Assembly: GCA_964353555.1 (NCBI GenBank)
Contig: CAYGWM010000001.1
Location: 3,659 to 67,658 of the forward strand
From: an uncultured Spirochaetales bacterium
GTDB lineage: Bacteria; Myxococcota_A; UBA9160; PR03
Direction: 5' to 3'
DNA length: 64,000 bases
The position numbers were made by a program, and so were the translations under genes. Shown in pieces: positions 9,955 to 50,102 of the stretch. The number at the start of each line of letters is the position of its first letter. Position 1 is the first letter of the stretch. The notes beneath the pieces were generated by a model, which worked only from the letters and a program-made list of their open reading frames with translations, had not been told where the DNA came from and did no database searches.

Positions 9955-9963
9955 GCTGCGCGC

Positions 9964-17902: not shown

Positions 17903-17905
17903 TCG

Positions 17906-18865
<960 letters not shown>

Positions 18866-18949
18866 GCCGGCCAAGGATACATCCTCCGTTGCACGCGCCG
18901 ACCTACGGCCAAATTGCCCAGCGGTTGCTCGTCGCAATCAATGTCGCGG

Positions 18950-20416: not shown

Positions 20417-20426
20417 CAGGGCGACG

Positions 20427-21173: not shown

Positions 21174-21177
21174 CGCG

Positions 21178-27001: not shown

Positions 27002-27004
27002 GTT

Positions 27005-27178
27005 GTTGACTCGTGTTGACTCGGGGACGCGTTGACTCGGGGACGTTCGTTGCGCCGGTTGACTTGGGGACGTTGGTTGCGCGAGTTGCGTCCAGGAACG
27101 TCCCCAACGCAAACGGCGCAACCAACGTCCCCAACGCAACTCGAGCAACGAACGTCCCCGACGCAACGGCGCGTGCTA
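27005..27178. repeat. palindromic array of 27-nt repeats (about 3.5 forward units, then 3 inverted units)
   Basis: Forward units are 27031-27057 GTTGACTCGGGGACGTTCGTTGCGCCG and 27058-27084 GTTGACTTGGGGACGTTGGTTGCGCGA, with partial units at 27005 and 27015. Inverted units are 27098-27124, 27125-27151 and 27152-27178 (ACGTCCCC[A/G]ACGCAAC...). A 17-bp perfect stem pairs 27066-27082 with 27116-27132, and a 15-bp stem pairs 27039-27053 with 27145-27159. Confidence 0.8.
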
Positions 27179-27198
27179 GGTTCCGGGGGGCGCGCAGT

Positions 27199-28461: not shown

Positions 28462-29705
28462 GTCTCGAGAAACTCTACGGTGCCATCTCGAAGCCGATCG
28501 GCGACGTGCTCGATCGCGCGCTCGCCGGTCGCGAGCTGTCGGTCGCCGACGCGACATTGCTGCTCGGCGCGCAGGGCGCCGACCTGCTCGCGCTGATGCA
28601 GGCCGCCGACGTCGCGCGGCGCGAAGACAAGGGTGACCTCGTCACCTACGTCGTCTGCCGGAACATGAACTTCACCAACGTCTGTTACGTCGGCTGCTCC
28701 TACTGCGGCTTCTCGCGACACAAAGACGACGCCGACGCCTACGACCATCCGATGGAGGCGCTCGTCGCGAAGGGTCGCGACGCGGCCCTGCGCGGCGCCA
28801 CCGAGTTCTGCATCCAGGGCGGCATCCATCCCGAGAAGGATCACACCCACTACCGCGAGATCCTGACGTCGCTGAAGGCAGCCTTCCCGCAGATCCACAT
28901 CCATGCGTTCTCGCCCGAGGAGATCGATCACGGCCACAAGAAGAGTGGCATGGCGCTCGCCGATTATCTGACGTGGTTGAAAGACGCCGGCCTCGGGACC
29001 ATCCCCGGAACGGCTGCCGAAATCCTCGACGATGAGATCCGCCAGGTGATCGAGCCGCGCAAGCTCGGCAGCGCGCGCTGGATCGAGATCATCGAAGCCG
29101 CGCACCGCGTCGGCCTGCGCTCGACCGCGACCGTGATGTATGGACACATCGAGCAGGCGCGTCACGTCGCGGCGCATCTGGGCACGATCCGCGAGATCCA
29201 GAAGCGCACCGGCGGCTTCACCGAGTTCGTGCCGCTCGGTTTCATCCACGAGAAGAACCGGCTCTTCCAGCACCTGCACGCGCGGCCCGGTTCATCGGGA
29301 CCGGAAGACATGCGCGTCGTCGCCGTCGCGCGACTGTTCCTGCGGCCGTGGATCCCGAACATCCAGATGTCGTGGGTGAAGATGGGGACCAAGCTCGCGC
29401 AGTTCGCGCTGCTGTCGGGCGCGAACGATTTCGGCGGCACGCTGATGGAGGAGTCGATCTCGCGCGAGTCCGGCTCGCAGCACGGCGAGAACCTGCCGCC
29501 CGAGGAGTTCCGCCGGCTGATCCGCGAAATGGGTCGCACCCCCGCCGAGCGCAGCACCAAGTACGAGATCCTGCGCGTGTTCGCGGATCCCGCGGAGGAT
29601 CCGCCGAGCCTCGAACCGGAACGCAAGAAGGATCTCGCTGGGCCGGCGCGCTGGAAGAAACAGGGCGAGAAGAATCCGCTGCGCGTGGCGGGGACGGGCG
29701 CCTAG
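28458..29705 (+). CDS. cofH: FO synthase subunit 2
   Basis: 'NMNFTNVCYVGCSYCGF', 'EFCIQGGIHPE', 'IHIHAFSPEEI' and 'ANDFGGTLMEESISRESG'. The ATG overlaps the cofG stop (ATGA). Confidence 0.9.
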   Translation: MSLEKLYGAISKPIGDVLDRALAGRELSVADATLLLGAQGADLLALMQAADVARREDKGDLVTYVVCRNMNFTNVCYVGCSYCGFSRHKDDADAYDHPMEALVAKGRDAALRGATEFCIQGGIHPEKDHTHYREILTSLKAAFPQIHIHAFSPEEIDHGHKKSGMALADYLTWLKDAGLGTIPGTAAEILDDEIRQVIEPRKLGSARWIEIIEAAHRVGLRSTATVMYGHIEQARHVAAHLGTIREIQKRTGGFTEFVPLGFIHEKNRLFQHLHARPGSSGPEDMRVVAVARLFLRPWIPNIQMSWVKMGTKLAQFALLSGANDFGGTLMEESISRESGSQHGENLPPEEFRRLIREMGRTPAERSTKYEILRVFADPAEDPPSLEPERKKDLAGPARWKKQGEKNPLRVAGTGA

Positions 29706-35622: not shown

Positions 35623-36555
35623 TTGCGGGTTCTCGTCACGGGCGGCGCGGGGTATCTCGGCTCGATTCTCTGCGAGCATCTGCTCGCCGCGGGGCACCGC
35701 GTGACCGCGCTCGACGCGCTCCATCACAGCGTGCCGTCGCTGCTGCACCTGTGCGAAAATGCGCGCTTCGAGTTCGTTCGCGGCGACGCGCGCGACGAAG
35801 CGCTGCTCGCTCGGCTGGTGGCAGACGCCGACGCGATCATCCCGCTCGCGGCAGTGGTCGGCGCGCCGGCCTGTGATCGCGATCCGTGGCTCGCGACGTC
35901 CACCAACCTCGACGCGATCCGCCTGCTGCTGCGGCTGCGCTCGCCCGAGCAGCTGATCGTGTATCCGACGACGAACAGCGGTTACGGCACGCAATCGGGC
36001 GATGTCCTCTGCACCGAGGAGACGCCGCTCGAGCCGATCTCCTTGTACGGCCGCACCAAGGTGCAGGCGGAAGCCGACGTGCTGGCCAGCCCGAACGCGA
36101 TCACGCTGCGACTCGCGACGGTGTTCGGAACGTCGCCGCGGATGCGACTCGATCTGCTCGTCAACCACTTCGTCTACGCGGCCGTCACCGATGGCTATCT
36201 GGTGCTGTTCGAGCAGGAGTTCAAGCGCAACTTCATCCACATCCGCGATGTCGCCGACTGCTTCGTGCACTGCCTTGCGAACCCGCAGCGGATGCTCGGT
36301 CGGGCGCACAATGCGGGACTCGACAGCGCGAACATCTCGAAGGGCGAACTCGCCGCCGCGGTGCAGAAGCAGGTGCCGAACTTCCACGTCGTCGTCTCGG
36401 CGATCGGCTCGGATCCCGACAAGCGCAACTACATCGTCTCCAACCAGCGACTTCGAGAAGCCGGCTTCGAGGCGCGTCGCTCGCTCGAGGACGGCATCCG
36501 CGAGCTGCTGCGCGCCTATCGGATGCTCCCGCTCGGCAACTTTCGGAACGCGTGA
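35623..36555 (+). CDS. NAD-dependent sugar epimerase/dehydratase (extended SDR)
   Basis: TTG start 5 nt after 'aggagg'. 'VLVTGGAGYLGS' and catalytic 'SLYGRTK' (YxxxK). Confidence 0.8.
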   Translation: MRVLVTGGAGYLGSILCEHLLAAGHRVTALDALHHSVPSLLHLCENARFEFVRGDARDEALLARLVADADAIIPLAAVVGAPACDRDPWLATSTNLDAIRLLLRLRSPEQLIVYPTTNSGYGTQSGDVLCTEETPLEPISLYGRTKVQAEADVLASPNAITLRLATVFGTSPRMRLDLLVNHFVYAAVTDGYLVLFEQEFKRNFIHIRDVADCFVHCLANPQRMLGRAHNAGLDSANISKGELAAAVQKQVPNFHVVVSAIGSDPDKRNYIVSNQRLREAGFEARRSLEDGIRELLRAYRMLPLGNFRNA

Positions 36556-37298
36556 CGAAGTCGAACGCACTCGCCGAAATCCCGGTCGCGATCCTGGCCG
36601 GCGGACTCGGTACACGGCTGCGCCCATCGATCGGCGAACGGCCGAAGGTGGTCGCGGAAGTGAACGGCCGCCCGTTCCTTGCGTATCTGCTCGATCAGGT
36701 CGCGCGCTTCGGCTTCCGCGACGTGGTGCTCTGCGTGGGCTGGCAGGCGGACGCCGTCGAGGCGGCGCTCGGCGCGCGCCACGGACCGCTGCGACTGCGC
36801 TACTCGCGCGAGCCCGCGCCGCTCGGTACCGGCGGCGCACTGCGCCTCGCGCTGCCGCTGCTCGAAGGTCCCGCCGCGATGGTGATGAACGGCGATTCGT
36901 ACTGCGACGCCGATCTCGCCGCGGCCTGGGCATGGCACCGCGAAAAGCGCTCATCGGCGACGCTGGTACTGGTCGAGATGGCCGATACGTCCCGCTACGG
37001 CCGTGTCGAGCTCGACGAAAGCGATTCCAGCGGCTCGATCTGCCGCTTCCTGGAAAAGCAGCAAGGCAGCACACCAGGTTGGATCAATGCGGGAATCTAC
37101 CTGCTGGACCGCTCTCGCATCGAGTCGATCGCGGCGGACCGCGCGCTGTCGTTCGAGCTCGACGTGCTGCCGGGCTGGGTGGGCGCGGGGCTGATGGGCC
37201 ATCGCGTGGAAGCTCGTTTCATTGATATAGGAACGCCTCAATCGTATTCTACTGCGTCCCGATTCTTCGAGGGGGAAGCCTGGAGGAAGACCGAGTGA
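36552..37298 (+). CDS. sugar-1-phosphate nucleotidyltransferase (HddC-like, D-glycero-D-manno-heptose-1-P guanylyltransferase family)
   Basis: 'VAILAGGLGTRLRP...PKVVAEVNGRPFL', 'EPAPLGTGGAL', 'MNGDSY' and 'SRYGRV...FLEK'. The GTG overlaps the upstream stop (GTGA). Confidence 0.8.
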   Translation: MTKSNALAEIPVAILAGGLGTRLRPSIGERPKVVAEVNGRPFLAYLLDQVARFGFRDVVLCVGWQADAVEAALGARHGPLRLRYSREPAPLGTGGALRLALPLLEGPAAMVMNGDSYCDADLAAAWAWHREKRSSATLVLVEMADTSRYGRVELDESDSSGSICRFLEKQQGSTPGWINAGIYLLDRSRIESIAADRALSFELDVLPGWVGAGLMGHRVEARFIDIGTPQSYSTASRFFEGEAWRKTE

Positions 37299-38353
37299 TC
37301 ATCAGCCGCACGCCCTACCGCATCTCCTTCTTCGGAGGCGGCACTGATTATCCGGACTGGTACCGCGAGCATGGCGGCGCGGTGCTCGCGACCTCGATCG
37401 ACAAGTACTGCTATCTCTCCGCACGCTTCCTGCCGCCGTTCTTCGAGCACAAGATCCGCGTCGTCTACTCGAAGATCGAGGATTGCCACGACATCGACGA
37501 GATCCAGCACCCGGCGGTCCGCGAGATCCTGCGCTTCCTGCGCTTCGAGCGCGGCGTCGAGATCCACCATGACGGCGACCTGCCGGCGCGCAGCGGGATC
37601 GGCTCCTCCTCGTCGTTCTGCGTCGGCCTGCTGCACGCACTCTACGCGCTCACCGGCAAGATGCCGAGCAAGCACCAGCTCGCGACCGAGGGCATCCACA
37701 TCGAGCAGGAAGTGCTGAACGAAACGGTCGGCTCGCAAGACCAGGTGACGGCGGCCCACGGCGGCTTCAACCACCTGATGTTCCAGCCGAGCGGCGAGAT
37801 CTCGGTGCGGCCGATCACGATCGGCCCACAGCGGATGCACGAACTCGAGTCGCATCTGCTGCTCTTCTTCACCGGCGTGAGGCGCACCTCTTCGGATGTG
37901 GCGCAGAGCTACGTCCACAATTTCGACGGCAACAAGCGTCACTTGCGGATCATGAAGGACCTCGTCGACGAAGCCCTGGCGGTGCTGTCGAGCGATCGCC
38001 CGCTGGAGAACTTCGGCACGCTGCTGCACGAATCGTGGCTCGCGAAGCGCAGTCTCTCGAAAGAGGTCTCGACCTCCGAGATCGACGAGATCTATCAGAG
38101 CGCGCTCGGCGCGGGCGCGCTCGGTGGGAAACTGCTCGGCGCTGGCGGTGGCGGGTTCCTGCTGCTCTTCGCCAGTCCGGATCGCCACGAGATCCTGAAG
38201 CAGAAACTCGACGGTCTGATCCACGTCCCGTTCCGCTTCGAGTCCGGCGGCTCGCAGATCATCTTCTACGACCCCGAGGCGGACTACACTGCCGAGGAGC
38301 GCGTACGTGCCAATGGTCCGCCCAAGGTGTTCCGCGAGCGCGGCGGCTGCTGA
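37295..38353 (+). CDS. GHMP-family sugar kinase (HddA-like)
   Basis: 'IISRTPYRISFFGGGTDYPDWY', the GHMP ATP motif 'DLPARSGIGSSSSF', 'GSQDQVTAAHGGFN' and 'GGKLLGAGGGGFLLLF'. GTGA overlap with the upstream gene. Confidence 0.85.
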   Translation: MIISRTPYRISFFGGGTDYPDWYREHGGAVLATSIDKYCYLSARFLPPFFEHKIRVVYSKIEDCHDIDEIQHPAVREILRFLRFERGVEIHHDGDLPARSGIGSSSSFCVGLLHALYALTGKMPSKHQLATEGIHIEQEVLNETVGSQDQVTAAHGGFNHLMFQPSGEISVRPITIGPQRMHELESHLLLFFTGVRRTSSDVAQSYVHNFDGNKRHLRIMKDLVDEALAVLSSDRPLENFGTLLHESWLAKRSLSKEVSTSEIDEIYQSALGAGALGGKLLGAGGGGFLLLFASPDRHEILKQKLDGLIHVPFRFESGGSQIIFYDPEADYTAEERVRANGPPKVFRERGGC

Positions 38354-38363
38354 GCGGTGCCAG

Positions 38364-39311
38364 TTGGACACCGAGGCGCGGATCTTCGTCGCGGGCGGCG
38401 GTGCGCTGGTCGGCGACGCGCTGCTGCGGCGCCTGCGCGACGCCGGCTTCGTGAATCTTCTTGGCGTTGGCGACACCGAACCGGATCTGCGCGACGCCGA
38501 AGCCGTCGATGAGTTCTTCGCGAGCGAACGCCCCGAGTACGTGTTCCTGCTCGGTGGGCGCTCCGGCGGCATCGCGCGCAACCTGCGCGAACCCGCCGAG
38601 TTGATGCTCGACAACCTGCGCATCGAGACCGCGCTGATCCCAGCCGCGCACCGCCATGGCGTCCGCAAACTGCTCTATCTCGCCGCCGCCTGCATCTACC
38701 CGCGCGACTGCGAGCAGCCGATGCGGCCCGCGCAGCTCGGCAGCGGTCCGGTCGAGCCCAGCAGCGAGGCGTACGCGATGGCAAAATGGGCGGGTCTCGT
38801 GTTGTGCCGCGCCTACGCACGGCAGTACGGCGCGCGCTTCATCACCGCGATTCCGGCGAACCCATTTGGGCCGGGCGACGACACGCGCTCCGAAGATGCC
38901 CATGTCGTCGGCGCTCTGATCCGGCGGATGCACGAGGCGAAGCAGCGAGGCGACGCGGAAGTGATCGTGTGGGGCACCGGTCGCGCGCGCCGCGATTTCC
39001 TGTTCGCGCCCGATCTCGCCGACGCGCTGGTCTTCCTGATGCAGCGCTACGACGGCGAGCAACCGATCAACGTGTCGGGCGCATCGGATGTCGCGATCGG
39101 CGAGCTGGCTGAGTGCATCCAGAAGGTGGTCGGCTTCAGCGGCCGGCTGCGCTTCGACGCGAGCCGTCCCGACGGCGCGCCGCGCAAAACGCTCGACGGC
39201 GAGGCGCTCCACGCACTCGGCTGGTCGCCGCGTCACGCGCTCGAGGAAGCGCTCACTGCTACGGTTCGCTGGTTCGTCGAGTCCGAGTCGGGAGCGGCGA
39301 CGCATGGCTGA
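38364..39311 (+). CDS. GDP-L-fucose synthase-like NDP-4-keto-sugar epimerase/reductase
   Basis: 'IFVAGGGALVG', 'ACIYP', 'YAMAKWAG' (YxxxK), 'VWGTGRARRDFLF' and 'DASRPDGAPRKTLD'. TTG at 38364 is the first in-frame start after the kinase stop. Confidence 0.8.
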   Translation: MDTEARIFVAGGGALVGDALLRRLRDAGFVNLLGVGDTEPDLRDAEAVDEFFASERPEYVFLLGGRSGGIARNLREPAELMLDNLRIETALIPAAHRHGVRKLLYLAAACIYPRDCEQPMRPAQLGSGPVEPSSEAYAMAKWAGLVLCRAYARQYGARFITAIPANPFGPGDDTRSEDAHVVGALIRRMHEAKQRGDAEVIVWGTGRARRDFLFAPDLADALVFLMQRYDGEQPINVSGASDVAIGELAECIQKVVGFSGRLRFDASRPDGAPRKTLDGEALHALGWSPRHALEEALTATVRWFVESESGAATHG

Positions 39312-40254
39312 TCTCGATCGCATCTACCGCTCGCTGTTCCGGATCCGCCGCGTCGAGGAGGAGATCGCGCGCGTCTATCCGACCGACGTGATCAAGAGCC
39401 CGGTGCACCTTTCGATCGGTCAGGAATCCGTCTCGGTCGGACTCTGCGAAGCATTGCGACCGGATGACGCCGCGTTCGGCACCTACCGCAGCCATGCGCT
39501 CTATCTCGCGAAGGGCGGCGACCTGCGCGCGATGATCGCGGAGCTGTACGGCAAGGCGACCGGCTGTGCGGGTGGCAAGGGCGGCTCGATGCACATGATC
39601 GACGTCGCGGCCGGCGTGTTCGGTTCTTCCGCAGTGGTGGGAACGACGATCCCGCACGCGGTCGGCTACGCGTACGCGGTGAAGCTGCGCCGCGAGTCGC
39701 GCGTGGTGGCGTGCGTCTTCGGCGACGGCGCGGTCGACGAGGGCGTCTTCTACGAGAGCCTGAACTTCGCCGCATTGAAGCGCCTCCCGGTGATCTTCGT
39801 GTGCGAGAACAACAGCTACGCGATCCATACCCACCAACGGCTGCGGCAGCGCGTGGCGGACGTCTGCGCGCGCGTGACCGCGCTCGGCATCCCCGCGGAG
39901 CGCATCGACGACGGTGACGTGCTGCGGATCGCCACGCGCGCGCGTGCGGCGAGCGATGCGCTGCGCGGCGGCGACGCCGGTCCCGTCTTCATCGAGTGCA
40001 TGACGTATCGATGGAAGGAACACGTCGGCCCGGGCGAGGACTGGAACCTCGGCTATCGCGGGCGCGCCGAAGCCGAGCCCTGGATCCGCGGGGACCAGGT
40101 CGCGCGGCTCGCGACGACGATCGACCAGGTCGCGCGCAAGCGAATCGAGAGCGAGGTGGAGGCTGAGATCGCCGACGCCTTCGCGTTTGCCGAGGGCTCG
40201 CCGTTCCCGGATCCGACCGCGCTGCACACCCAGGTGTTCCGGGAGTCGCCGTGA
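39304..40254 (+). CDS. ThDP-dependent 2-oxoacid dehydrogenase E1 component, alpha subunit-like
   Basis: 'IKSPVHLSIGQE', 'YRSHA', 'GKGGSMH' and the ThDP motif 'GDGAVDEGVFYESLNFAALKRLPVIFVCENNSYA'. The ATG overlaps the upstream gene by 8 nt. Confidence 0.85.
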   Translation: MADLDRIYRSLFRIRRVEEEIARVYPTDVIKSPVHLSIGQESVSVGLCEALRPDDAAFGTYRSHALYLAKGGDLRAMIAELYGKATGCAGGKGGSMHMIDVAAGVFGSSAVVGTTIPHAVGYAYAVKLRRESRVVACVFGDGAVDEGVFYESLNFAALKRLPVIFVCENNSYAIHTHQRLRQRVADVCARVTALGIPAERIDDGDVLRIATRARAASDALRGGDAGPVFIECMTYRWKEHVGPGEDWNLGYRGRAEAEPWIRGDQVARLATTIDQVARKRIESEVEAEIADAFAFAEGSPFPDPTALHTQVFRESP

Positions 40255-41300
40255 GCGAGCGCGAGCAGAGCTACGTCGACGCGCTGCGCGAGGCCGCGTT
40301 CCAGGAGATGGAGCGCGATCCGTCGGTCGTCTGCTTCGGCCTCGATGTGGACGATCCGAAGGCGATCCAGGGCACTACGCGCGGGCTCGTCGATAAATTC
40401 GGCCCGGAGCGCGTGTTCGGCACGCCGCTCGCCGAAGACGCGATGACCGGCGTTGCGATCGGCATGGCGCTCGCCGGCCTGCGCCCGATCCACGTGCACA
40501 TCCGGATGGATTTCTTGCTGCTGGCGATGAACCAGCTGATCAACATCGCGGCGAAGAGCCATTACATGTATGGCGGTCACGTCCACGTGCCGATCGTCGT
40601 GCGCTCGATGATCGGCAAGAGCTGGGGGCAAGGTGCCCAGCATTCGCAGGGACTCTATTCGTTCTTCATGCACGTGCCGGGCATCAAGGTGGCGGCGCCC
40701 ACCAATCCCCACGACGCGAAGGGCTGTCTCATTGCAGCGATTCGCGACGACAACCCGGTGATGCTCGTCGAACACCGGCTGCTGTATCCACACGAGGGGC
40801 CCGTGCCGCAGGCGCTCTACGAAGTGCGGCCCGGGCGCGCCCGCGTCGCAGCGCCGGGCAGCGACGTCACGTTGGTGGGCATCTCGCACATGTTGGTGGA
40901 GTGCCTGCAAGCGCGCACGTATCTCGCCGAGAAGGGCGTTTCAGCCGAGGTGATCGACCCGATCTGGCTGGCGCCGCTCGACATCGACACGATCGTGGCG
41001 TCGGTTGCGAAGACCGGCCGGCTGGTCGCGGTGGACAATGGCTGGACGACTTGCGGCGCCTCGGCGGAGATCGTTGCCCGCGTGGTCGAGCGTTTGCAGG
41101 GCACGCGCGACATTCGCGTGCACCGGATGGGCTTCGCGCCCACCACCTGCCCGCCGACGCCGGGCCTCGAGAAGCTCTTCTACGCCGATGCGCGCACGAT
41201 TGCGGCCGCTGCCAACGATCTGGTCGAAGGTCGCAGCACGGGTTGGCTTCCTGCCGAGCGTCCGAGCTCCGGTGAGATCACGTTCCGGGGACCGTTCTGA
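40251..41300 (+). CDS. E1 component beta subunit-like (transketolase pyrimidine-binding and C-terminal domains)
   Basis: 'RVFGTPLAEDAMTGVAIGMALAGLRP', 'QHSQ' and 'APTNPHDAKGCL'. GTGA overlap with the alpha subunit. Confidence 0.85.
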   Translation: MSEREQSYVDALREAAFQEMERDPSVVCFGLDVDDPKAIQGTTRGLVDKFGPERVFGTPLAEDAMTGVAIGMALAGLRPIHVHIRMDFLLLAMNQLINIAAKSHYMYGGHVHVPIVVRSMIGKSWGQGAQHSQGLYSFFMHVPGIKVAAPTNPHDAKGCLIAAIRDDNPVMLVEHRLLYPHEGPVPQALYEVRPGRARVAAPGSDVTLVGISHMLVECLQARTYLAEKGVSAEVIDPIWLAPLDIDTIVASVAKTGRLVAVDNGWTTCGASAEIVARVVERLQGTRDIRVHRMGFAPTTCPPTPGLEKLFYADARTIAAAANDLVEGRSTGWLPAERPSSGEITFRGPF

Positions 41301-42478
41301 TGTCCTGGCCGCTGATGCGCAACAACATCTCACGTGAAGATTTGCAGGCGGTGATCCGGTTCCTGTCGGCCGACGATCCGATCCTCACGCAGTCGAAACA
41401 GGTGGAACTCTTCGAGCAGGAATGGTCGGAGTGGCTGGGCGTACAGCACTCGGTATTTGTGAACTCGGGTTCGTCGGCGAATCTGATCACGATGGCGGCG
41501 CTGCGCCACCGCTACGGCCCGGGCGAGGTGATCGTACCGACGCTCACCTGGGTCTCCGACATCACCGCGGTGCTGCATGCGGGTCTGACGCCGGTGTTCG
41601 TCGACATCGATCCGCGCACGCTCGGGATGGACAACGACGCGGTGATCGAGAAGCTGTCGCCGCGCACGCGCGCGGTCTTCCTGACGCACATCCTCGGCTA
41701 CAACGCGCTCGGCGACCGGCTGCTCGATACGCTGCGCGAGCGCCGCATTCCGCTGATCGAGGACGTCTGCGAGTCGCACGGTGCGACCTTCGCGGGCCGC
41801 AAGCTCGGCACCTTCGGACTCGCGTCGAATTTCTCGTTCTATTACGCGCATCACATGAGCACGATCGAAGGCGGCATGGTTTCGACCGACGACGCCGAGC
41901 TGTTTGCCATGCTCCGCATGTTGCGCGCCCACGGACTCGTGCGCGAAGCCGGCGATGATGCGGTGAAGAGCCGCTACGCCGAGGCGCACCCGGATCTCAC
42001 GCCTGACTTCATTTTTGCGCTGCCCGGCTTCAACGTGCGCTCGACCGAGATCAACGCGGTAATGGGTCGCTCGCAGCTGCGCCGTCTCGACGCGAACAAC
42101 GAACGCCGTCGCGCGAACCTCGCGGTGTTCCTGCGCCATCTCGATCCGAACAAGTACTTCACCGACTTCGCCACCGAGGGAAGCTGCAACTACGCCTTCA
42201 CGCTGGTGCTGCGCGATCCGGACGACGCGCTTCGCGATCGCGTGATGACCGCGCTCCGCGAGCGCGGCATCGAGTTTCGGCGCGGCACCTCGGGCGGCGG
42301 CAATCAGCTCCGCCAGCCCTACCTCCGAGGGATCGTCGCTGCGGAAGATCTCGGCCGCTTTCCGCGCGTCGATCACGTCCATTTCTACGGCTTCTACATC
42401 GGCAACTACCCCGATCTCGAGCCCGAACGGATCGCCCGCCTCTGCGATATGTTGAACGCAATCGACAGTGGGAAGTAG
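41300..42478 (+). CDS. DegT/DnrJ/EryC1-fold PMP-dependent NDP-4-keto-6-deoxysugar 3-dehydratase (ColD / E1 DdhC type)
   Basis: DegT-family fold ('NSGSSANL', 'IEDVCESHGA'). At the Schiff-base position the sequence reads 'FSFYYAHHMSTIEGGM', with His instead of Lys. This is the signature of ColD and CDP-hexulose 3-dehydrase E1. Confidence 0.75.
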   Translation: MSWPLMRNNISREDLQAVIRFLSADDPILTQSKQVELFEQEWSEWLGVQHSVFVNSGSSANLITMAALRHRYGPGEVIVPTLTWVSDITAVLHAGLTPVFVDIDPRTLGMDNDAVIEKLSPRTRAVFLTHILGYNALGDRLLDTLRERRIPLIEDVCESHGATFAGRKLGTFGLASNFSFYYAHHMSTIEGGMVSTDDAELFAMLRMLRAHGLVREAGDDAVKSRYAEAHPDLTPDFIFALPGFNVRSTEINAVMGRSQLRRLDANNERRRANLAVFLRHLDPNKYFTDFATEGSCNYAFTLVLRDPDDALRDRVMTALRERGIEFRRGTSGGGNQLRQPYLRGIVAAEDLGRFPRVDHVHFYGFYIGNYPDLEPERIARLCDMLNAIDSGK

Positions 42479-42483
42479 GCATC

Positions 42484-43989
42484 ATGGCGACCGACATCGA
42501 TCTGGTCCTCGTGAACCCGGGCGGTCGCGCCCGCATCTATCAGTCGCTTGCGACGGAGGTCACCGCCGTCGAACCGCCCGTATGGGCGGGACTGATGGCC
42601 AGTTTCGTCCGCGGGCGTGGTCACTCGGTTGCGATCATCGACTCGAACGCCGAAGAGCTGGGACCGGAAGAAGCAGCCGCACGCGCGATCGAGATGCGGC
42701 CGCGGATGGTCGCGGTGCCCGTCTACGGTCACCAGCCGTCCGCCTCGACGCAGGTGATGCCGGGTGCGAGCGCGGTCGTGACCGCGCTGAAGGACCTCGC
42801 GCCCGAGCTGCCCGTATTGATGGTCGGCGGTCACGTCGCATCGCTGCCGCAGCGCACGCTCGCCGAGGAGCGCTGCGACTTCGTCGCCGACGGCGAGGGC
42901 CTGCACACGATGGTGGAGCTGCTCGAAGCGCTCGCCGCGAGCAGCACACCCGAATTCTCGCGCGTGCGCGGCCTCTGGACACGTGATGGCGACGGCGCGA
43001 AATGCACTGCGACCGCGCCGCTGGTGATGAACGTGGACGTCGAGATGCCGGGCGTCGCGTGGGACCTGCTGCCGATGCAGAAGTACCGCGCGCACAACTG
43101 GCACTGCTTCGGCGAAGCGAGCCGCGAGCCCTACGTCGCGCTCTACACCACGCTCGGGTGTCCGTACCACTGCTCGTTCTGTTGCATCCAGGCGCCGTTC
43201 AAGAGCGGCGAGTCGCTGGCCGGCTACAAGGACAGCGTCAACTCGTACCGCTTCTGGAGTCCCGCGCGCGTGCTCGAGGATCTGACGCTGCTGGTCGAAC
43301 GCTACGGCGTTCGCAACATCAAAGTTGCCGACGAGATGTTCGTGCTGAACGCGCGCCACGTGAACGCGATCTGCGACGGCATCGTCGCGCGCGGCCTGCC
43401 GCTGAACATCTGGGCGTATGCACGCGTCGACACCGTGAAGGATTCGATGGTCGACAAGCTGGCGCGCGCCGGCGTACGTTGGCTCGCCTTCGGCATCGAG
43501 GCCGCCAGCGAACGCGTGCGCGCCGACGTCGACAAGGGCTTCGACGACGAACTGGTCTACCGCACGCTCGAGAAGGTGCGCGGCGCCGGCATCCGCGTGA
43601 TCGGCAACTACATCTTCGGCCTGCCGGAAGACGATCACGACACGATGCAAGAGACGCTCGACCTCGCGATCGAGCTCAACTGTGAGTTCGCAAACTTCTA
43701 CTGCGCGATGGCGTACCCCGGATCGCCGCTCTACGACCGCGCGATCGCCGAGGGCTGGCCGCTGCCCGAGACCTGGGGCGGCTACTCGCAGCACAGTGTC
43801 GACTCGCTGCCGCTGCCCACGCGCCACCTCTCGGCCGGCGAGGTGCTGCGCTTCCGCGATGAAGCCTTCCAGGCCTACTTCAAGAGCCCGCGGTACCTGT
43901 CGATGGTCGAAGCGAGGTTCGGCGCTGCGACGCTGCGCGAGATCGCCGCGATGTCCGCGCACCGGCTCGAGCGGCGGTTCGCCGCGTGA
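42484..43989 (+). CDS. B12-binding-domain radical SAM enzyme (class B)
   Basis: N-terminal Rossmann-like cobalamin-binding domain ('DLVLVNPG...', 'VGGHVASLP'), then 'TTLGCPYHCSFCC' (CxxxCxxC). 501 aa. Confidence 0.85.
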   Translation: MATDIDLVLVNPGGRARIYQSLATEVTAVEPPVWAGLMASFVRGRGHSVAIIDSNAEELGPEEAAARAIEMRPRMVAVPVYGHQPSASTQVMPGASAVVTALKDLAPELPVLMVGGHVASLPQRTLAEERCDFVADGEGLHTMVELLEALAASSTPEFSRVRGLWTRDGDGAKCTATAPLVMNVDVEMPGVAWDLLPMQKYRAHNWHCFGEASREPYVALYTTLGCPYHCSFCCIQAPFKSGESLAGYKDSVNSYRFWSPARVLEDLTLLVERYGVRNIKVADEMFVLNARHVNAICDGIVARGLPLNIWAYARVDTVKDSMVDKLARAGVRWLAFGIEAASERVRADVDKGFDDELVYRTLEKVRGAGIRVIGNYIFGLPEDDHDTMQETLDLAIELNCEFANFYCAMAYPGSPLYDRAIAEGWPLPETWGGYSQHSVDSLPLPTRHLSAGEVLRFRDEAFQAYFKSPRYLSMVEARFGAATLREIAAMSAHRLERRFAA

Positions 43990-44936
43990 GCGCGCCGGTG
44001 CTTTCGGTCGTGCTGTCGTTCCGCAACGAGGCGGACGTGATCCCGGAGTTGATCTCCCGGCTCGCAAAGTCGCTCGAAGGCGCCGGCATCGACTACGAGC
44101 TGATCTTCGTGAACGACGCCTCTACGGATGGCTCGCTCGCGCTACTCGAAGCACTGCGCGCTCGCGATCCGCGCGTGAAGATCCTGAACATGTCGCGTCG
44201 CTTCGGTGTGGCTCCCTGCGTGATGGCGGGTATGCAATTCGCGCGGGGCGACGCCGTCGTCTACATGGACACGGACCTGCAGGATCCGCCCGAGCTGATC
44301 CCGACGCTGGTTGCGCGCTGGCGCGAAGGTGCCGACGTCGTCTACACGGTGCGCACTTCGCGACAGGGCGAGTCGGTATGGAAGATGCGCGTGACGCGCG
44401 CCGCGTACCGCGCGATCCAGCTCGCGTCGGACATCGAACTGCCGATCGAGGCAGGCGACTTCAAGTTGCTTTCGCGACGCGTCGTCGACCAACTGATCGC
44501 GCTCGGCGAGCAGGATCTCTACGTGCGCGGGCTCGTCACGTGGATGGGATTCCGGCAGGTGGCGGTGCCGTACGAACGCCAGCCGCGCGGCGCGGGTGAG
44601 GCGCACTTCCCGCTGTTGCGGAGCTGGGGGCCGATTTCTTCATTTGTTGCCGGCGTGACGTCGTTCTCGCATGCGCCATTGATTGCTTTTCTGCTGCTCG
44701 GCCTCGCCGGTGGCGCGCTCTCGATGCTCGCGCTCGCGCTGCTGCTGCTCGCTGGTGTCGTCGGCGCAGCGGCCTCGAGCATCGCGTGGCTCGTCGCATT
44801 CGGCGTGCTGCTGTGGAGTACGCTGGCGCTCGGGATCGGCGTCATCGGTCTCTATCTCGCACGCATCCATCGCGAGGTGCTCGGACGGCCGCGCTACATC
44901 GTGGAGAGCGCCATCGGCTTCGATGAGCCGAGCTGA
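43986..44936 (+). CDS. polyprenyl-phosphate glycosyltransferase (GT2, ArnC/GtrB-like; third copy)
   Basis: 'LSVVLSFRNE', 'IFVNDASTDGS', 'RRFGVAPC' and 'MDTDLQDPPE', then two C-terminal TM helices and 'GLYLARIHREVLGRPRYIV'. GTGA overlap with the rSAM gene. Confidence 0.85.
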   Translation: MSAPVLSVVLSFRNEADVIPELISRLAKSLEGAGIDYELIFVNDASTDGSLALLEALRARDPRVKILNMSRRFGVAPCVMAGMQFARGDAVVYMDTDLQDPPELIPTLVARWREGADVVYTVRTSRQGESVWKMRVTRAAYRAIQLASDIELPIEAGDFKLLSRRVVDQLIALGEQDLYVRGLVTWMGFRQVAVPYERQPRGAGEAHFPLLRSWGPISSFVAGVTSFSHAPLIAFLLLGLAGGALSMLALALLLLAGVVGAAASSIAWLVAFGVLLWSTLALGIGVIGLYLARIHREVLGRPRYIVESAIGFDEPS

Positions 44937-46899
44937 GCAGCTGTCGTCGTCCGCAGTGTCGCCCTTCAGCGCCGGCCGTCCGCTCGCCGGCGTAGTGGCG
45001 ATCAGCGCCGCGGCGGGGTTCGTGGTCGGTCTGCTGTTCCCTGCCTGGCACGTCGCGCTCGAACCCGCGCAGGTGATCGCTGGGATCGTCGAGTACCCGA
45101 GCGGCAATCCATTCGGACTCTACGAAACACGGCTATGGACCGGCTGGCACCAGGTCCTCGCGCCGCTGCTCGCGGCTGGTGTTCCGGAGCGCGTGCTGAC
45201 CTTCGTGCTCTCTGGTCTCGTCGCCGCGATTTCGTTCACAGCACTCACCGCATTTGCATACGGACTCGGCGCCGACGCCGAGCTTGCGATCGCGACACCG
45301 TTCGTGCTCGGCGTGCTGAACCCCACCTCGTGGCAGTTTTGGTACCCGATCATTTTGCTCGGCCATGGCCACACCTACGGCATGGCGGGACTTGCGTGGC
45401 TGGTGCTTGCCTGCGGTGTGCTCGCGACGGAACGCTGGGCGGTGGCAGCGTTTCTGATCGGCATCGCGCCCGCAGTACACGCGTCGCTCGGCGCGTGGCT
45501 CGGTCTGCTCGCGCTGGTTTGCGGACTCGCGCACTGGCGCGAGGTGCGCCCCCATGTCGCCGCGATCGTGCGCGGTGGCACGCTCGGCGCTTCGATCGCC
45601 GCGCTGAGTCTCGCGACACATCTGCTCCGCCAGCCCGCCGGGCTGGCGGTCGATCCCGCCGTCGCGAGCCGCTACCTCGATGGCTTCGTCCAGCTCTGGG
45701 ATGCGCACCGCATCCCCGGCAACGTGACGGGTTTCGGCGGGCTCGTGGTGTGCATCGGCCTGATCGTCGCCGTCGCAATGCTGCGATGTGCACGACGGCA
45801 GATCGGCGCCGCCACTGCACTGGTGCTGAACGTCTATGTCAGTTGCGGCGTGCTAGGCATCGCGCTGGCGCTCGTGCAGCGATTCGTGCCACCCGAGCAG
45901 ATCCCGAACACGCTGCTGATCGCGATGCCGGCGAGGCTGCTCAATCTGCCGGCGCTCGCGTTCGTGCCGCTGCTGATCGGCGTGCTCGGGCGCTACCGGA
46001 GCGATGTGGTGGCGCGCGCGCTGCTGGTCGTTTTGGTGACGGTCGCCGCGCTGCGTCCACTCTTCGCGGATCTCGCACTCTACGGCTTGCCGATCGTTGG
46101 TGTGGCGACGGCCCTTGTGATCGACCGCCACGCCGATCGTCCCGGCGCAATCCGGATCGCGGTGATCGGCATGCTGGCGTTTGCCGGGCTGCGCGCGACG
46201 CAGTCCACGGTTCCCCTCTCGTGGCGGGATGCGGCGTCGTTCGCTGCGATGCTGACCGCGGCGGCGCTGGGGGTCGGCGCTTCGCTGCAGCGAACGCGCG
46301 CGACCAACCGCGATGGATCGCTAGCGCGACTCGCGCGTCGCCTCGCCGAGCAGCCGTTGCCGCTGCAGCTTCCGCTGCGCATCGCACTCGTCGCGACGGT
46401 ACTGATCACGGTCAACGCGGCGATTCGCGGCTTCGAGTACCGCTTGTCACGGCTGCACGATCGCAGCAACGATCGAGCGCTGGCCGCCGCGTCGCGCGGC
46501 GACGGTCTGTTGCTGGTGGCGCCGCGCATTTCGACGCCGCAGCTGATCACGCGTCGCCCGGTGGTGCTCGATCCGGGCGCGCTCGACATGCTGCCCTACG
46601 CGCTCGCGGGTGGACCCGAGTTGGAGCGCATGCTGCGCATCGGCTACGGAGTCGAATTCTTCGCGCCGCCGCCGAAGGCGCTGCACACCGCGCTGTTGCC
46701 CAGCGAAGTCGTGCAGCCGATCTGGGAGAAGCGCAGCGGCGCGGAATGGCGCGAAGTTGCGACGAGTCTCGGCGTCACCGACGTGCTGGTTCCGGCGACG
46801 TGGAAGCTATCCGGCGTGCCGGAAGTCGAGCGCAGCAGCGCGTACGTGCTCTATCACCTCGCGACGCCCGCTGGCGCAGGTCCGGCCGGCACCCGATAG
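44923..46899 (+). CDS. polytopic membrane protein (658 aa), candidate GT-C-type transferase for the operon's sugar
   Basis: C-terminal 658 aa of ORF 44683..46899. About 12 or more TM helices, then a soluble C-terminal domain. The ATG at 44923 overlaps the GT2 by 14 nt. Family not recognised. Confidence 0.6.
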   Translation: MSRAEQLSSSAVSPFSAGRPLAGVVAISAAAGFVVGLLFPAWHVALEPAQVIAGIVEYPSGNPFGLYETRLWTGWHQVLAPLLAAGVPERVLTFVLSGLVAAISFTALTAFAYGLGADAELAIATPFVLGVLNPTSWQFWYPIILLGHGHTYGMAGLAWLVLACGVLATERWAVAAFLIGIAPAVHASLGAWLGLLALVCGLAHWREVRPHVAAIVRGGTLGASIAALSLATHLLRQPAGLAVDPAVASRYLDGFVQLWDAHRIPGNVTGFGGLVVCIGLIVAVAMLRCARRQIGAATALVLNVYVSCGVLGIALALVQRFVPPEQIPNTLLIAMPARLLNLPALAFVPLLIGVLGRYRSDVVARALLVVLVTVAALRPLFADLALYGLPIVGVATALVIDRHADRPGAIRIAVIGMLAFAGLRATQSTVPLSWRDAASFAAMLTAAALGVGASLQRTRATNRDGSLARLARRLAEQPLPLQLPLRIALVATVLITVNAAIRGFEYRLSRLHDRSNDRALAAASRGDGLLLVAPRISTPQLITRRPVVLDPGALDMLPYALAGGPELERMLRIGYGVEFFAPPPKALHTALLPSEVVQPIWEKRSGAEWREVATSLGVTDVLVPATWKLSGVPEVERSSAYVLYHLATPAGAGPAGTR

Positions 46900-47663: not shown

Positions 47664-47987
47664 ATGGTGCGCGCGTCCGGTTTCGTGATTGCCTTCGGGT
47701 TCATTCTGCTGGTTGCGGCAGCTCCGGCTCTCGCGGATGTGACCGTCGCAGTAGGCCACAGCAGCTTCGATCCGGCGCAGGTGACGATCAAAAAGGGCGA
47801 GTCGGTGATCTTCCACAACGTCCAGGAAATGCCCGGCGGTCATACCGTGGTTGCCGACGATGGCTCGTGGAAGAGCCCGCCGCTCGCGCTGAACGAGAAG
47901 TTCACCAAGCGCTTCGAGCAGAGCGGGACCGTCAAGATCCACATCGAGCAGCATCCGCACGCGACCGGCGAGATCGTCGTCGAGTAG
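47664..47987 (+). CDS. small secreted cupredoxin-like protein (no Cys ligand)
   Basis: RBS 'aaggag', signal peptide ending 'APALA', and a plastocyanin-like 'FDPAQVTIKKGESVIFHN...GHTV' beta-sandwich pattern. The C-terminal 'IHIEQHPHATGEIVV' replaces the usual C..H..M motif. Confidence 0.6.
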   Translation: MVRASGFVIAFGFILLVAAAPALADVTVAVGHSSFDPAQVTIKKGESVIFHNVQEMPGGHTVVADDGSWKSPPLALNEKFTKRFEQSGTVKIHIEQHPHATGEIVVE

Positions 47988-48750: not shown

Positions 48751-48842
48751 CGGGGGTCGAAGCTAGCAGCGACGACGGTACGGGGGCAGCTAGCGTCTCG
48801 TGTTGGGCGCCGGTCCAGCCGATGTCGGCGCAGGAGCAGAAG

Positions 48843-50102
48843 ATGACACTCGACTACGACCCGTTCTCGCCGCGTTTCCGTGATGACCCGTATCCGGTCT
48901 ATCGCGCGTTACGGGAACAGGCGCCGGTTCATTTTGCGCCCGAGTCGAAGATGTTCTGTGTGTCGCGCCACGACGACGTCAGCCAGGTGCTGCGGCGCGC
49001 GGACCTTTTCTCGTCGTCGGCGATGGCAACCGTGCTGATGAACGCCGACATGGGGCCGATGCGGCCGCGCTACGTCTTCGCGCTCGCGCGCTTCCTCTGG
49101 AAGACGCGGATCAACCCGGTGAAGATGCAGAAGCGCGGGAACCTGACGAGTATCGACCCGCCGCGCCACGACGTGATGCGCAAGATCGTGAATCGAGCCT
49201 TCACGCCGAAGCGCATCGACGCGTGGGAGGCTCGTGCGCGGGAGATCGTTGCGACGCAGCTCGCGAAGCTCAAGCGCGGCGATGCCTTCGACGTGGTCGA
49301 GGATCTCGCGATCCCGCTGCCCGTGACGATCATCGCGGAGATGCTCGGCGTCGCCCCCGAGCGACAGCGCGACTTCAAGCGCTGGAGCGATGCGATCATC
49401 TCCGTTGCCTCGGGTTCGGCGCGACAGAACCCGGTCGAGAGCGGGATGCTCGAAGGCTTTTCTGAACTTTACGCGTATCTGCGCGAAACGGTCCGACGGC
49501 GGCGTCGCACTCCGGCAGACGACCTGGTGAGCGTGCTCGTCGATCCGTCGCAGGACGGCGTGCTCGACGAACTCGACGTCGTGAACTTCGTGGTGCTGCT
49601 GCTGGTCGCGGGCAACGAGACGACGACGAACCTGATCGGCAATGCGGTGCATGCACTGCTCGAGCATCCGGAGCAGCTCGCGCGTGTCGCGAGCGACCCT
49701 TCGCTGGTTCCGAGCCTCATCGAAGAGACGCTGCGTTACGACGCGCCGATCCAGCTGCTATTCCGCACGGCAAGCTGCGATACGGAGCTCGCCGGCAAGC
49801 GCATTCCCAAGGGATCCGTCGTCGTACCGCTGCTCGGTTCGGCGAACCGCGACGAGCGCGTCTTCGACGCACCGGATCGTTTCGACGTGACTCGCGACGC
49901 AAAGGGACATCTCGCGTTCGGCCTCGGCGTGCACTTCTGCCTCGGCTCCGCGCTTGCGCGACTCGAAGCGCGCGTCGCGCTCGAAACGCTGGTGCCGCTG
50001 CTCTCGGAGTGCGAACCGAGCCAGATGGACGCCCCGTTCGTCGATTCGTTCTTGGTGCGCGGCCGCACGCACCTGCCGATCGCAGTCAGCGGCGCCGTCT
50101 AA
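48843..50102 (+). CDS. cytochrome P450
   Basis: I-helix 'LLLVAGNETT', 'ETLR' (ExxR) and haem-binding 'FGLGVHFCLGSALAR'. The ATG at 48843 has 'aggag' 6 nt upstream; an alternative ATG is at 48822. Confidence 0.9.
   Translation: MTLDYDPFSPRFRDDPYPVYRALREQAPVHFAPESKMFCVSRHDDVSQVLRRADLFSSSAMATVLMNADMGPMRPRYVFALARFLWKTRINPVKMQKRGNLTSIDPPRHDVMRKIVNRAFTPKRIDAWEARAREIVATQLAKLKRGDAFDVVEDLAIPLPVTIIAEMLGVAPERQRDFKRWSDAIISVASGSARQNPVESGMLEGFSELYAYLRETVRRRRRTPADDLVSVLVDPSQDGVLDELDVVNFVVLLLVAGNETTTNLIGNAVHALLEHPEQLARVASDPSLVPSLIEETLRYDAPIQLLFRTASCDTELAGKRIPKGSVVVPLLGSANRDERVFDAPDRFDVTRDAKGHLAFGLGVHFCLGSALARLEARVALETLVPLLSECEPSQMDAPFVDSFLVRGRTHLPIAVSGAV

Follow-up and report, generated by a model that had tools for sequence, protein, structure and literature searches.

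A histidine-type DegT-fold enzyme in a widespread heptose-related gene cassette is probably an iron-sulphur-free, ColD-type nucleotide-sugar 3-dehydratase

We analysed a 64,000-nucleotide stretch of DNA from an uncultured Spirochaetales bacterium (GenBank assembly GCA_964353555.1, contig CAYGWM010000001.1, positions 3,659 to 67,658 of the forward strand), referred to here as the window, with a focus on the gene at window positions 41300-42478. A preliminary description of this DNA had taken its product for a DegT-fold enzyme in which histidine replaces the Schiff-base lysine, i.e. for a nucleoside diphosphate (NDP) sugar 3-dehydratase instead of an aminotransferase. The gene belongs to a run of ten plus-strand genes between positions 35623 and 46899:

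35623..36555, plus strand: SDR1, a short-chain dehydrogenase/reductase (SDR) homologous to the GDP-heptose C4-dehydrogenase Cj1427 (PDB 6vo6/6vo8, 343 bits; 51% identity over the full length)
36552..37298, plus strand: sugar-1-phosphate nucleotidyltransferase (Pfam NTP_transferase)
37295..38353, plus strand: GHMP sugar kinase, HddA-like (heptose-7-phosphate kinase; Pfam GHMP_kinases_N/C)
38307..39311, plus strand: SDR2, a GDP-L-fucose-synthase-like epimerase/reductase (NCBIfam GDPFucSynFcl, 348 bits, cutoff 500)
39304..40254, plus strand: thiamine diphosphate (ThDP)-dependent E1 alpha, pyruvate-dehydrogenase-like (Pfam E1_dh, 199 bits; NCBIfam PDH_E1_alph_y, 283 bits)
40251..41300, plus strand: ThDP-dependent E1 beta (Pfam Transket_pyr and Transketolase_C; NCBIfam PDH E1 beta, 275 bits)
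41300..42478, plus strand: predicted His-type DegT-fold NDP-4-keto-sugar 3-dehydratase, ColD-like and free of iron-sulphur (Fe-S) clusters (Pfam, phmmer, Foldseek, MAFFT)
42484..43989, plus strand: B12-binding radical S-adenosylmethionine (SAM) enzyme (Pfam B12-binding and Radical_SAM)
43986..44936, plus strand: family 2 glycosyltransferase (GT2) of the PgfS/ArnC type (Pfam Glycos_transf_2, 109 bits)
44923..46899, plus strand: polytopic membrane protein of 658 amino acids (about 10-12 hydrophobic segments by hydropathy)

Start and stop codons overlap at every junction (GTGA, TGATG and ATGA-type), which indicates that the ten genes form one translationally coupled operon. The start codon of the dehydratase gene overlaps the E1 beta stop codon in a TGATG, the nucleotidyltransferase gene overlaps SDR1 in a GTGA, and the membrane protein gene overlaps the GT2 gene. 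SDR1 has a TTG start preceded by AGGAGG, the longest open reading frame (ORF) at this place starting at 35410.

The dehydratase ORF comprises 392 codons from an ATG start, and its coordinates agree with those of the preliminary description. The GC content of the whole window is 68%, and many shadow ORFs therefore overlap the gene. GC at third codon positions (GC3) amounts to 0.85 in the dehydratase frame vs 0.65 and 0.43 in the remaining plus-strand frames; as this favours the dehydratase frame, the overlapping minus-strand ORF of 350 amino acids is a high-GC shadow ORF. The protein matches Pfam DegT_DnrJ_EryC1 (PF01041) as a full-length domain (234 bits, residues 11-385). An AlphaFold2 model with a mean predicted local distance difference test score (pLDDT) of 79.9 and a predicted template modelling (TM) score (pTM) of 0.81 aligns in Foldseek with many DegT-fold structures (TM 0.75-0.84), showing the fold-type I DegT/DnrJ/EryC1 architecture.

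Three cofactor motifs are found in the protein, NSGSSAN (residues 55-61), EDVCES (154-159) and SFYYAHH (179-185), the last within the peptide NFSFYYAHHMSTIEGGMVS that spans residues 177-195. Where the aminotransferase ArnB has its Schiff-base lysine, the query reads S179-x4-H184 and thus departs from the SxxxxK motif of aminotransferases. In a MAFFT alignment of seven sequences, namely the query, ColD, the CDP-hexulose 3-dehydrase E1, PDB 9wvy, an Azospirillum RfbH, a Chelatococcus ColD-like protein whose gene sits in a GDP-mannose/fucose cluster, and Pantoea ArnB, one column holds His184 of the query, ColD His188, E1 His220, a histidine of 9wvy and the ArnB lysine. The residue that follows is His in all dehydratases aligned and Asn in ArnB. 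This is further supported by phmmer searches against PDB, where the first histidine of the query lies opposite the only residue that varies among the ColD chains: 2gms has H there, 3b8x has N, and both 2r0t and 3gr9 have K. The titles returned by Foldseek for 3b8x and 3gr9 are 'ColD H188N' and 'ColD H188K S187N'. The numbering of E1 was recovered with the RfbH-annotated gene from an Azospirillum plasmid as a bridge query, which returned E1 residues 3-432. His220 is the first histidine of the A-H-H sequence of E1 and is replaced by lysine in 3bb8 ('E1 Dehydrase H220K Mutant').

All 3-dehydratases have His in place of the lysine (PMC8987622). Among 201 distinct sequences of the query's family His184 and His185 are conserved in 100%, and on the strength of this conservation the His substitution is judged not to be a chance replacement but to be under strong selection. 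Invariant residues of the cofactor motifs further include S56, G57, D155, E158, S179, T188, E190, G191, N245 and R247. We also considered a Schiff-base lysine relocated to another part of the chain. This candidate is ruled out, as none of the six lysines of the query is invariant in the 201 homologues, the best of them, K168, being Arg or Asn in 9%. The histidine in place of lysine and its alignment with ColD His188 and E1 His220, both proposed in the preliminary description, are thus borne out.

These data bear directly on the possibility that the protein is a genuine C4 (or C3) aminotransferase that copes without the Schiff-base lysine and yields a 4-amino sugar. Its DegT fold, the annotation by NCBI and an identity of 31% to ArnB, which is as close as ColD, would fit such an enzyme. 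GDP-perosamine synthase is moreover the second-best structural match, and the 3-dehydratase SpnQ transaminates when no reductase is supplied (PMC8987622). However, the invariant His and the HH dyad are common only to characterised dehydratases, ArnB having K-N at these positions, and the protein is without any invariant Lys. Neither ColD nor E1 shows transamination when the conditions are comparable (PMC8987622), and an amine at C4 would deprive the adjacent E1 alpha/beta pair of its keto acceptor. We regard an aminotransferase as highly improbable. Resting on the His signature and the operon context, C3 deoxygenation of an NDP-4-keto sugar by a dehydratase is the most likely reaction.

In the databases the family appears either as 'CDP-6-deoxy-D-xylo-4-hexulose-3-dehydrase' or 'E1' (JGI) or as 'DegT/DnrJ/EryC1/StrS aminotransferase' (NCBI). 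The JGI label has the reaction right and the subtype wrong, and the NCBI label is that of a generic aminotransferase. The change of annotation to a C-3 deoxygenase, which had been put forward in the preliminary description, is therefore backed by the His signature but only partly new, since the JGI names already imply it; the protein is probably a divergent His-type, Fe-S-free sugar 3-dehydratase of a known enzyme class.

E1 and SpnQ carry a [2Fe-2S] cluster held by four cysteines and require E3 or ferredoxin/flavodoxin reductases, whereas ColD has no cluster; its ene-amine intermediate is hydrolysed and pyridoxamine 5'-phosphate (PMP) is regenerated with glutamate (PMC8987622). E1 has cysteines at positions 192, 193, 251, 253, 257, 261, 298 and 327, and the Azospirillum RfbH keeps C193, C251, C253 and C261, but not C257. 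In the query the four positions C193, C251, C253 and C261 correspond to C157, A217, a gap and V222, respectively, and the segment is shortened as in ColD. The four-Cys [2Fe-2S] motif is absent from a protein that has three cysteines in total (157, 296 and 382), and Cys157 lies within an EDxCES motif that is common to Fe-S-free ColD. Raw matches to CX4CX2C occur three times in the window, all in non-coding frames. When about 45 ORFs of the window were scanned with Pfam, no protein with a Fer2, FAD_binding_6 or NAD_binding_1 domain and hence no E3-type Fer2/FNR protein came up, as the preliminary description had claimed. A regular-expression scan of the window and 85 related loci for Fer2, RxYS and GxGxxP patterns gave zero matches, which is weak evidence as it was run without a positive control, the Azospirillum rfb stretch containing no E3.

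Sequence and structure searches point in the same direction as the cysteine pattern. In phmmer against PDB the four ColD entries come first (166-172 bits, residues 23-337), followed by perosamine synthase with 137 bits and E1 with 128-132 bits. In Foldseek ColD is at the top (TM 0.83-0.84), GDP-perosamine synthase second, and E1 is found at ranks 46-49. The best NCBIfam model for the query is the RfbH equivalog, yet its score of 199.4 bits is less than half of the cutoff of 423, and the Azospirillum RfbH scores 659 bits to PDB 3bcx vs 132 bits for the query.

An E1/SpnQ-type reductive 3-deoxygenase, in which a PMP-glucoseen would be reduced via an enzyme-bound Fe-S cluster from E3 or from a general ferredoxin/flavodoxin reductase, draws on several genuine resemblances. 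Besides RfbH as the best model and 'E1' as the JGI name, the Ala-His-His sequence is the same as E1 A219-H220-H221, Y181 equals E1 Y217, the C-terminal GGGNQLRQPY is like AGNLTRQPY of E1, three cysteines are conserved in the family, and a ferredoxin-reductase-like gene is present at window positions 4-1155. Against this, the RfbH score stays below half of the cutoff, Cys251, Cys253 and Cys261 are lost so that only the ColD-shared C157 is left of the motif, no reductase partner was found in the window Pfam scans or in the uncontrolled motif scan of 85 loci, genes of a CDP-glucose pathway are lacking, and E1 ranks well below ColD both by sequence and by fold. This type of enzyme is scarcely probable here, and an Fe-S-dependent mechanism in general appears very unlikely from the sequence. 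With the ColD type as the sole known alternative, the gene probably encodes a PMP/pyridoxal 5'-phosphate (PLP)-dependent, Fe-S-free ColD-type nucleotide-sugar 3-dehydratase, in line with the ColD-like mechanism that the preliminary description had favoured. Dependence on glutamate and release of the product by hydrolysis would follow from the exclusion of the Fe-S route.

The gene at 4-1155 (plus strand) encodes a ferredoxin-reductase-like flavoprotein with Pyr_redox_2 and Reductase_C domains. It is the sole such gene and lies about 40 kb from the dehydratase gene. A cytochrome P450 is encoded at 48822-50102 and a cupredoxin at 47664-47987, and the flavoprotein is more plausibly a redox partner of the P450 than a substitute for E3.

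By BLASTP the query is 33% identical to ColD, 30% to E1, 36% to 9wvy, 35% to the Chelatococcus ColD-like protein and 31% to ArnB, while ColD and E1 share 33% with each other. Among the ColD-type enzymes that have been characterised, those of E. coli, Yersinia and C. jejuni, mutual identities are 62-67% (PMC10440746). Five specificity sites are treated in a preprint, according to which Ser187 is not conserved among dehydratases (10.1101/2021.09.04.459008). At these sites the query has the following residues:

Site 1: E158, as in ColD
Site 2: Y181, as E1 Y217
Site 3: A183, as E1 A219 (Ser187 in ColD)
Site 4: H184, the predicted catalytic His
Site 5: Y298, Phe in every comparator dehydratase

Because of the identity of 33%, the Ala in place of Ser187 and the lack of a GMD partner, the query is, as far as its sequence and context tell, not a ColD orthologue but a member of a separate subfamily that mixes ColD-like and E1-like features.

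Several observations weigh against the assignment to the ColD type. The identity to ColD is no higher than that to a true aminotransferase, and the NCBIfam scores for RfbH, HddA, HddC and Fcl are all well below the curated cutoffs. In the AlphaFold2 model the active-site loop 183-189 has a pLDDT below 50. The Ala at the position of Ser187 is that of E1, and the Tyr at site 5 departs from the Phe of the comparators. No biochemically characterised member of the subfamily was found in the literature. Finally, Cys157, Cys296 and Cys382 are conserved at 91-99% in the 201 family sequences, and an atypical Fe-S or metal site could be built from them; such a site is unlikely, because ColD, which is Fe-S-free, has the counterpart of C157 and a cysteine at position 195 occurs in no more than 52% of the family. 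Position 195 (window positions around 41882-41884) follows the sequence EGGMV, and the 201 members are divided there between Cys (52%) and Ser (48%). Cys296 (91%) and Cys382 (98.5%) are conserved and have no counterpart in ColD or E1.

As to the substrate, the preliminary description had suggested NDP-4-keto-6-deoxy sugars. This is probably wrong, as no 4,6-dehydratase is found among the operon genes in the window, and the operon instead contains a homologue of the Cj1427-type GDP-heptose C4-dehydrogenase. PDB entry 6vo6 is presumably Cj1427 itself. A search with the 6vo6 chain led to a C. jejuni protein of 313 amino acids encoded in the capsule heptose locus. The gene is flanked by a cupin epimerase and a C4-reductase-like SDR on one side and by HddA, GmhA and HddC on the other; this neighbourhood is the position of Cj1427. 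Cj1427 does not deoxygenate C6 (PMC10680097), and combined in vitro with a ColD-type C3-dehydratase, PLP and glutamate it converts GDP-heptose to GDP-D-glycero-3-deoxy-4-keto-heptose (PMC10680097, PMC10440746). SDR1 is the probable source of the 4-keto substrate.

The remaining early genes of the operon fit a GDP-heptose pathway by family resemblance rather than identity, their NCBIfam scores being below the equivalog cutoffs. The nucleotidyltransferase scores 156 bits with the mannose-1-phosphate guanylyltransferase model and 131 bits with HddC (both below cutoff), is 33% identical to C. jejuni HddC, and is probably a guanylyltransferase of the HddC/mannose-1-phosphate type. Among the NCBIfam models the GHMP kinase matches HddA best (135 bits, which is below cutoff), with 29% identity to the C. 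jejuni protein, and SDR2 matches the GDP-L-fucose synthase 7ll6 with 287 bits. The lack of a 4,6-dehydratase, the Cj1427-like SDR1, the HddA/HddC-like genes and the Fcl-like SDR2 argue for a GDP-4-keto-heptose rather than a 4-keto-6-deoxyhexose. GDP-D-glycero-4-keto-heptose would be the most economical choice of substrate, and we give it about an even chance. A GDP-linked substrate is suggested by the gene context, namely by the Cj1427-like SDR (51%), the Fcl-like SDR (348 bits) and the mannose-1-phosphate/HddC-like transferase; the top two fold matches of the dehydratase in Foldseek are GDP-sugar enzymes as well. A point against a heptose is that the window contains no SIS or HAD gene, so that genes elsewhere in the genome must supply the heptose. 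GmhA-like SIS and HAD genes are found inside many related loci, the cyanobacterial SIS protein being GmhA-like at 207 bits.

Cj1427-type dehydrogenases consume alpha-ketoglutarate to re-oxidise their bound NADH (PMC10680097). Between SDR1 (35623-36555) and the dehydratase (41300-42478), alpha-ketoglutarate would be released from glutamate by the dehydratase and consumed by SDR1, and the two could feed each other through this coupling of cofactors.

By analogy with ColD, the reaction would begin with a transamination that turns PLP into PMP, L-glutamate being the most likely amino donor. PMP would then condense with the sugar at its C4 ketone to give a ketimine, His184 would take the C4' proton and the 3-OH would be expelled. 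Hydrolysis of the resulting 3,4-ene-amine adduct would yield the 3-deoxy-4-keto sugar, ammonia and PLP.

The position of the gene next to E1 alpha and E1 beta suggests how this product may be used. In the pathways of yersiniose, erwiniose and caryophyllose, the acyl anion equivalent of a ThDP enzyme is added at the C4 ketone of a C3-deoxygenated sugar (PMC9306805), and the split E1 alpha/beta pair AviB1/AviB2 of actinomycetes is proposed to install a C4 acetyl branch from pyruvate (PMC4753412). The 3-deoxy-4-keto sugar is thus the acceptor of ThDP branching enzymes (PMC9306805), which agrees with the view of the preliminary description that the dehydratase sets the chemistry of the operon. E1 alpha has an intact ThDP motif (GDG-X26-NN), and the pair is a probable two-carbon branching enzyme. 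The C4 ketone is required by the dehydratase as well as by E1 alpha/beta but is lost in the ThDP addition, so that the dehydratase must come first. We infer the step order and the final product from the operon context. SDR1 would oxidise C4 to give GDP-D-glycero-4-keto-heptose, the likely substrate of the dehydratase; E1 alpha/beta would add an acetyl branch from pyruvate at C4 of the 3-deoxy-4-keto product; the B12-radical SAM enzyme and SDR2 would modify the sugar further; and the PgfS/ArnC-like GT2 would load it onto polyprenyl phosphate for export. SDR2 might catalyse a late step, either a ketoreduction or an epimerisation. The B12-radical SAM enzyme has no close NCBIfam model (best HpnJ, 152 bits vs a cutoff of 578, then ApyD and BchE) and could act either as a C-methylase or in a rearrangement or cyclisation. 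The GT2 scores 210 bits with PgfS and 133 bits with ArnC, both below cutoff, and is a probable polyprenyl-phosphate sugar transferase, as PgfS and ArnC are. For the 658-residue membrane protein, which is present in the Myxococcota/'Proteobacteria' versions of the cluster, neither Pfam nor NCBIfam gave a match; it may act on the lipid-linked sugar as a transferase of the GT-C type or as a transporter. Together, GT2 and membrane protein suggest a lipid-linked, periplasm-facing glycosylation route. Upstream of the operon, 30882-33122 (plus strand) encodes a protein of 746 amino acids whose C-terminal match to YfhO is weak (23.9 bits) and does not reach the gathering score; the protein could be a second GT-C-type transferase using the lipid-linked sugar.

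The product of the cassette is probably a 3-deoxy, C4-branched sugar derived from heptose. For the more specific proposal of a 3-deoxy heptose with a C4-acetyl/hydroxyethyl branch and possibly a C-methyl group, new to the literature and used by bacteria of more than ten phyla, the arguments for and against are evenly balanced in our view. A speculative and rather unlikely variant is that the cassette makes the carbocyclic sugar caryose (a 4,8-cyclo-3,9-dideoxy-nonose) or a close relative. Activation of a GDP-heptose would here be followed by Cj1427-like C4 oxidation, the 3-dehydratase, the ThDP-dependent E1 alpha/beta and the HpnJ-like B12-radical SAM enzyme. Seven carbons from the heptose and two from pyruvate would add up to nine; the 3-deoxy position would come from the dehydratase, the 9-deoxy methyl group from pyruvate and the C4 tertiary alcohol from ThDP addition, and a C7-C8 bond made by the radical SAM enzyme would close the cyclopentane ring. 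The biosynthesis of caryose was stated to be unknown in a 2022 review, and related cyclopentane-forming steps are credited to radical SAM enzymes such as HpnJ (PMC9092360).

The same operon context raises the question of whether the His-type PMP enzyme has a chemistry specific to this cassette, i.e. whether it hands a 3,4-ene to a ThDP or radical SAM partner, acts at another position or uses a substrate without GDP. The subfamily is separate and equidistant from ColD, E1 and the aminotransferases, its conservation is unusual (66-72% identity across phyla), the invariant Tyr298 is unique where all comparator dehydratases have Phe, Tyr182 is also invariant, and in most loci the dehydratase lies between E1 alpha/beta and the B12-radical SAM enzyme, with overlapping stop and start codons. 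There is, however, no positive evidence for such chemistry. The ordinary ColD reaction explains all catalytic hallmarks, and the combination of Cj1427 with a ColD-type enzyme works in vitro (PMC10680097). In some loci of Verrucomicrobiota the dehydratase is kept although E1 alpha/beta is missing, and this speaks for an activity of its own. We consider cassette-specific chemistry unlikely and retain the ColD-type 3-dehydration.

The family is widespread. Our homology search figures rest on the 120 matches listed, which are 69-97% identical to the query. A scan with one genome per GTDB species found at least 539 confirmed loci across more than ten phyla, and details are given for the best 80 of these 539. 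Among the best 80, the closest are metagenome-assembled genomes (MAGs) of Myxococcota or 'Deltaproteobacteria' with 91-94% identity, and the rest have 66-72%, from Cyanobacteriota, Verrucomicrobiota, Planctomycetota, Chloroflexota, Acidobacteriota, KSB1, Methylomirabilis, Poribacteria and one Paenibacillus MAG. The closeness to the Myxococcota loci makes a myxobacterial lineage probable for the window. The cyanobacterial carriers include Nodosilinea nodulosa PCC 7104 and isolates of Microcoleus. No family member was found in the plasmid collection, where all 1219 matches were below 60% identity.

The conservation of the neighbourhood was assessed with a tblastn matrix of 85 loci. In most of them E1 alpha/beta lies directly upstream and the B12-radical SAM gene directly downstream of the dehydratase. 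GHMP kinase, nucleotidyltransferase and two SDRs are usually present, and HAD and SIS genes in many. In a cyanobacterial variant (L002, 7932-9980) E1 alpha and beta are fused into a protein of 682 amino acids, and NUDIX, Methyltransf_24 and DAO genes are added. Where Verrucomicrobiota loci are without E1 alpha/beta, the radical SAM protein is divergent. A locus of Betaproteobacteria type (L059, 11143-17781) adds a GMD-like dehydratase, a different B12-radical SAM protein of 688 amino acids, an aldo-keto reductase and a 2-oxoglutarate-Fe(II) oxygenase. The pathway of the cassette has evidently diversified. Every protein of the cassette (window 35623-46899; loci L002-L085) is about 50-75% identical between phyla, e.g. 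Myxococcota, Cyanobacteriota, Planctomycetota and Chloroflexota. This is unusually high for sugar-modification genes and suggests the horizontal spread of a constrained module. Taken as a tightly coupled unit, the cassette shows protein identities of about 60-75% across these four phyla, Verrucomicrobiota, Acidobacteriota and others.

Compared with ColD/WbdK, the GDP-4-keto-6-deoxy-D-mannose 3-dehydratase of E. coli O55 (2gms, 3b8x, 2r0t, 3gr9), the query has a like fold (TM 0.83-0.84), the catalytic His and HH dyad, the EDxCES and RAHG motifs, a GDP-sugar gene context and no Fe-S Cys motif. It differs in being 33% identical, with Ala for Ser187 and Tyr298 for Phe. The enzyme upstream is GMD for ColD vs a Cj1427-like C4-dehydrogenase for the query, whose substrate would thus probably retain the 6-OH and have seven carbons, and the product is used by the ColC reductase vs a predicted ThDP branching enzyme. 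The closest precedent for the proposed reaction comes from the GDP-heptose C3-dehydratases of C. jejuni HS:5 and HS:11, which are ColD-type PLP/glutamate enzymes acting on GDP-4-keto-heptoses (PMC10440746, PMC10680097). They accept the product of Cj1427 in vitro and form GDP-D-glycero-3-deoxy-4-keto-heptose, but their natural substrate is a 6-deoxy sugar and the pairing with Cj1427 is artificial. Being 62-67% identical to ColD, they are true ColD orthologues, and by way of ColD the query is set apart from them as a distinct clade. With E1 (AscC/DdhC/RfbH, the CDP-6-deoxy-L-threo-D-glycero-4-hexulose 3-dehydrase; 3bcx, 3bb8) the query shares the His, the A-H-H sequence, the Tyr at site 2 and the C-terminal NxxRQPY. 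Unlike E1, to which it is 30% identical, it is without Cys251, Cys253 and Cys261, their insertion of about 10 residues and the N-terminal extension of about 40 residues, and it is accompanied by neither an E3 partner nor CDP-glucose genes.

At the level of the pathway, the nearest relatives are those of acyl-branched sugars, i.e. yersiniose (E1/E3, then YerE/YerF), erwiniose and caryophyllose (ErwE, MMAR_2332) and the avilamycin/paulomycin routes of the AviB1/AviB2 type. They share with the proposal for the cassette the logic of a 3-deoxy-4-keto NDP-sugar, ThDP-dependent acyl addition at C4 and ketoreduction (PMC9306805, PMC4753412). The Gram-negative examples use a CDP-hexose, E1/E3 and a single-chain flavoenzyme of the YerE type, and the actinomycete ones dTDP sugars, whereas the cassette would join a GDP-heptose start to a dehydratase of the ColD type, E1 alpha and beta on separate chains and a B12-radical SAM enzyme. 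No description of this combination was found in the literature, nor a described product for a cassette with 3-dehydratase, E1 alpha/beta, B12-radical SAM enzyme and polyprenyl-phosphate GT2.

Elsewhere in the window, 5465-23183 is a putative second region of glycan or lipid modification:

5465-7111: acetolactate-synthase-like ThDP enzyme (TPP_enzyme_N/M/C, YerE architecture class)
9964-10692 and 10751-11590: two SDRs
12055-14022: DUF7657/DUF7654 protein
14472-15671: methyltransferase
17906-18937, minus strand: GT2
18950-20416, minus strand: flavin monooxygenase
20427-21173, minus strand: SDR
21972-23183, minus strand: class-III aminotransferase

On the plus strand, 25229-29705 encodes a nitrite/sulfite-reductase-like protein followed by two radical SAM proteins (27013-28461 and 28260-29705), the second with a CofH/MqnC C-terminal domain. 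These genes may serve the synthesis of menaquinone (futalosine pathway) or of an F420-type cofactor. As the listed ORFs overlap by about 200 nucleotides, the second radical SAM protein probably starts later than 28260. Two further plus-strand genes are unrelated to the dehydratase, a DinG-like exonuclease-helicase fusion at 6871-9954 (RNase_T and Helicase_C_2) and an Lhr-type helicase of 1485 amino acids at 55582-60039.

For the family, these results mean that a large and widespread group of proteins is to be read as Fe-S-free ColD-type 3-dehydratases, probably acting on a GDP-4-keto-heptose. The 3-dehydratase step defines a 3-deoxy-4-keto intermediate, which is the type of acceptor used by ThDP branching enzymes. 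The cassette would thereby lead to what is likely a new branched or rearranged sugar derived from heptose on a lipid carrier, and culturable carriers such as Nodosilinea nodulosa PCC 7104 and Microcoleus make this product experimentally accessible.

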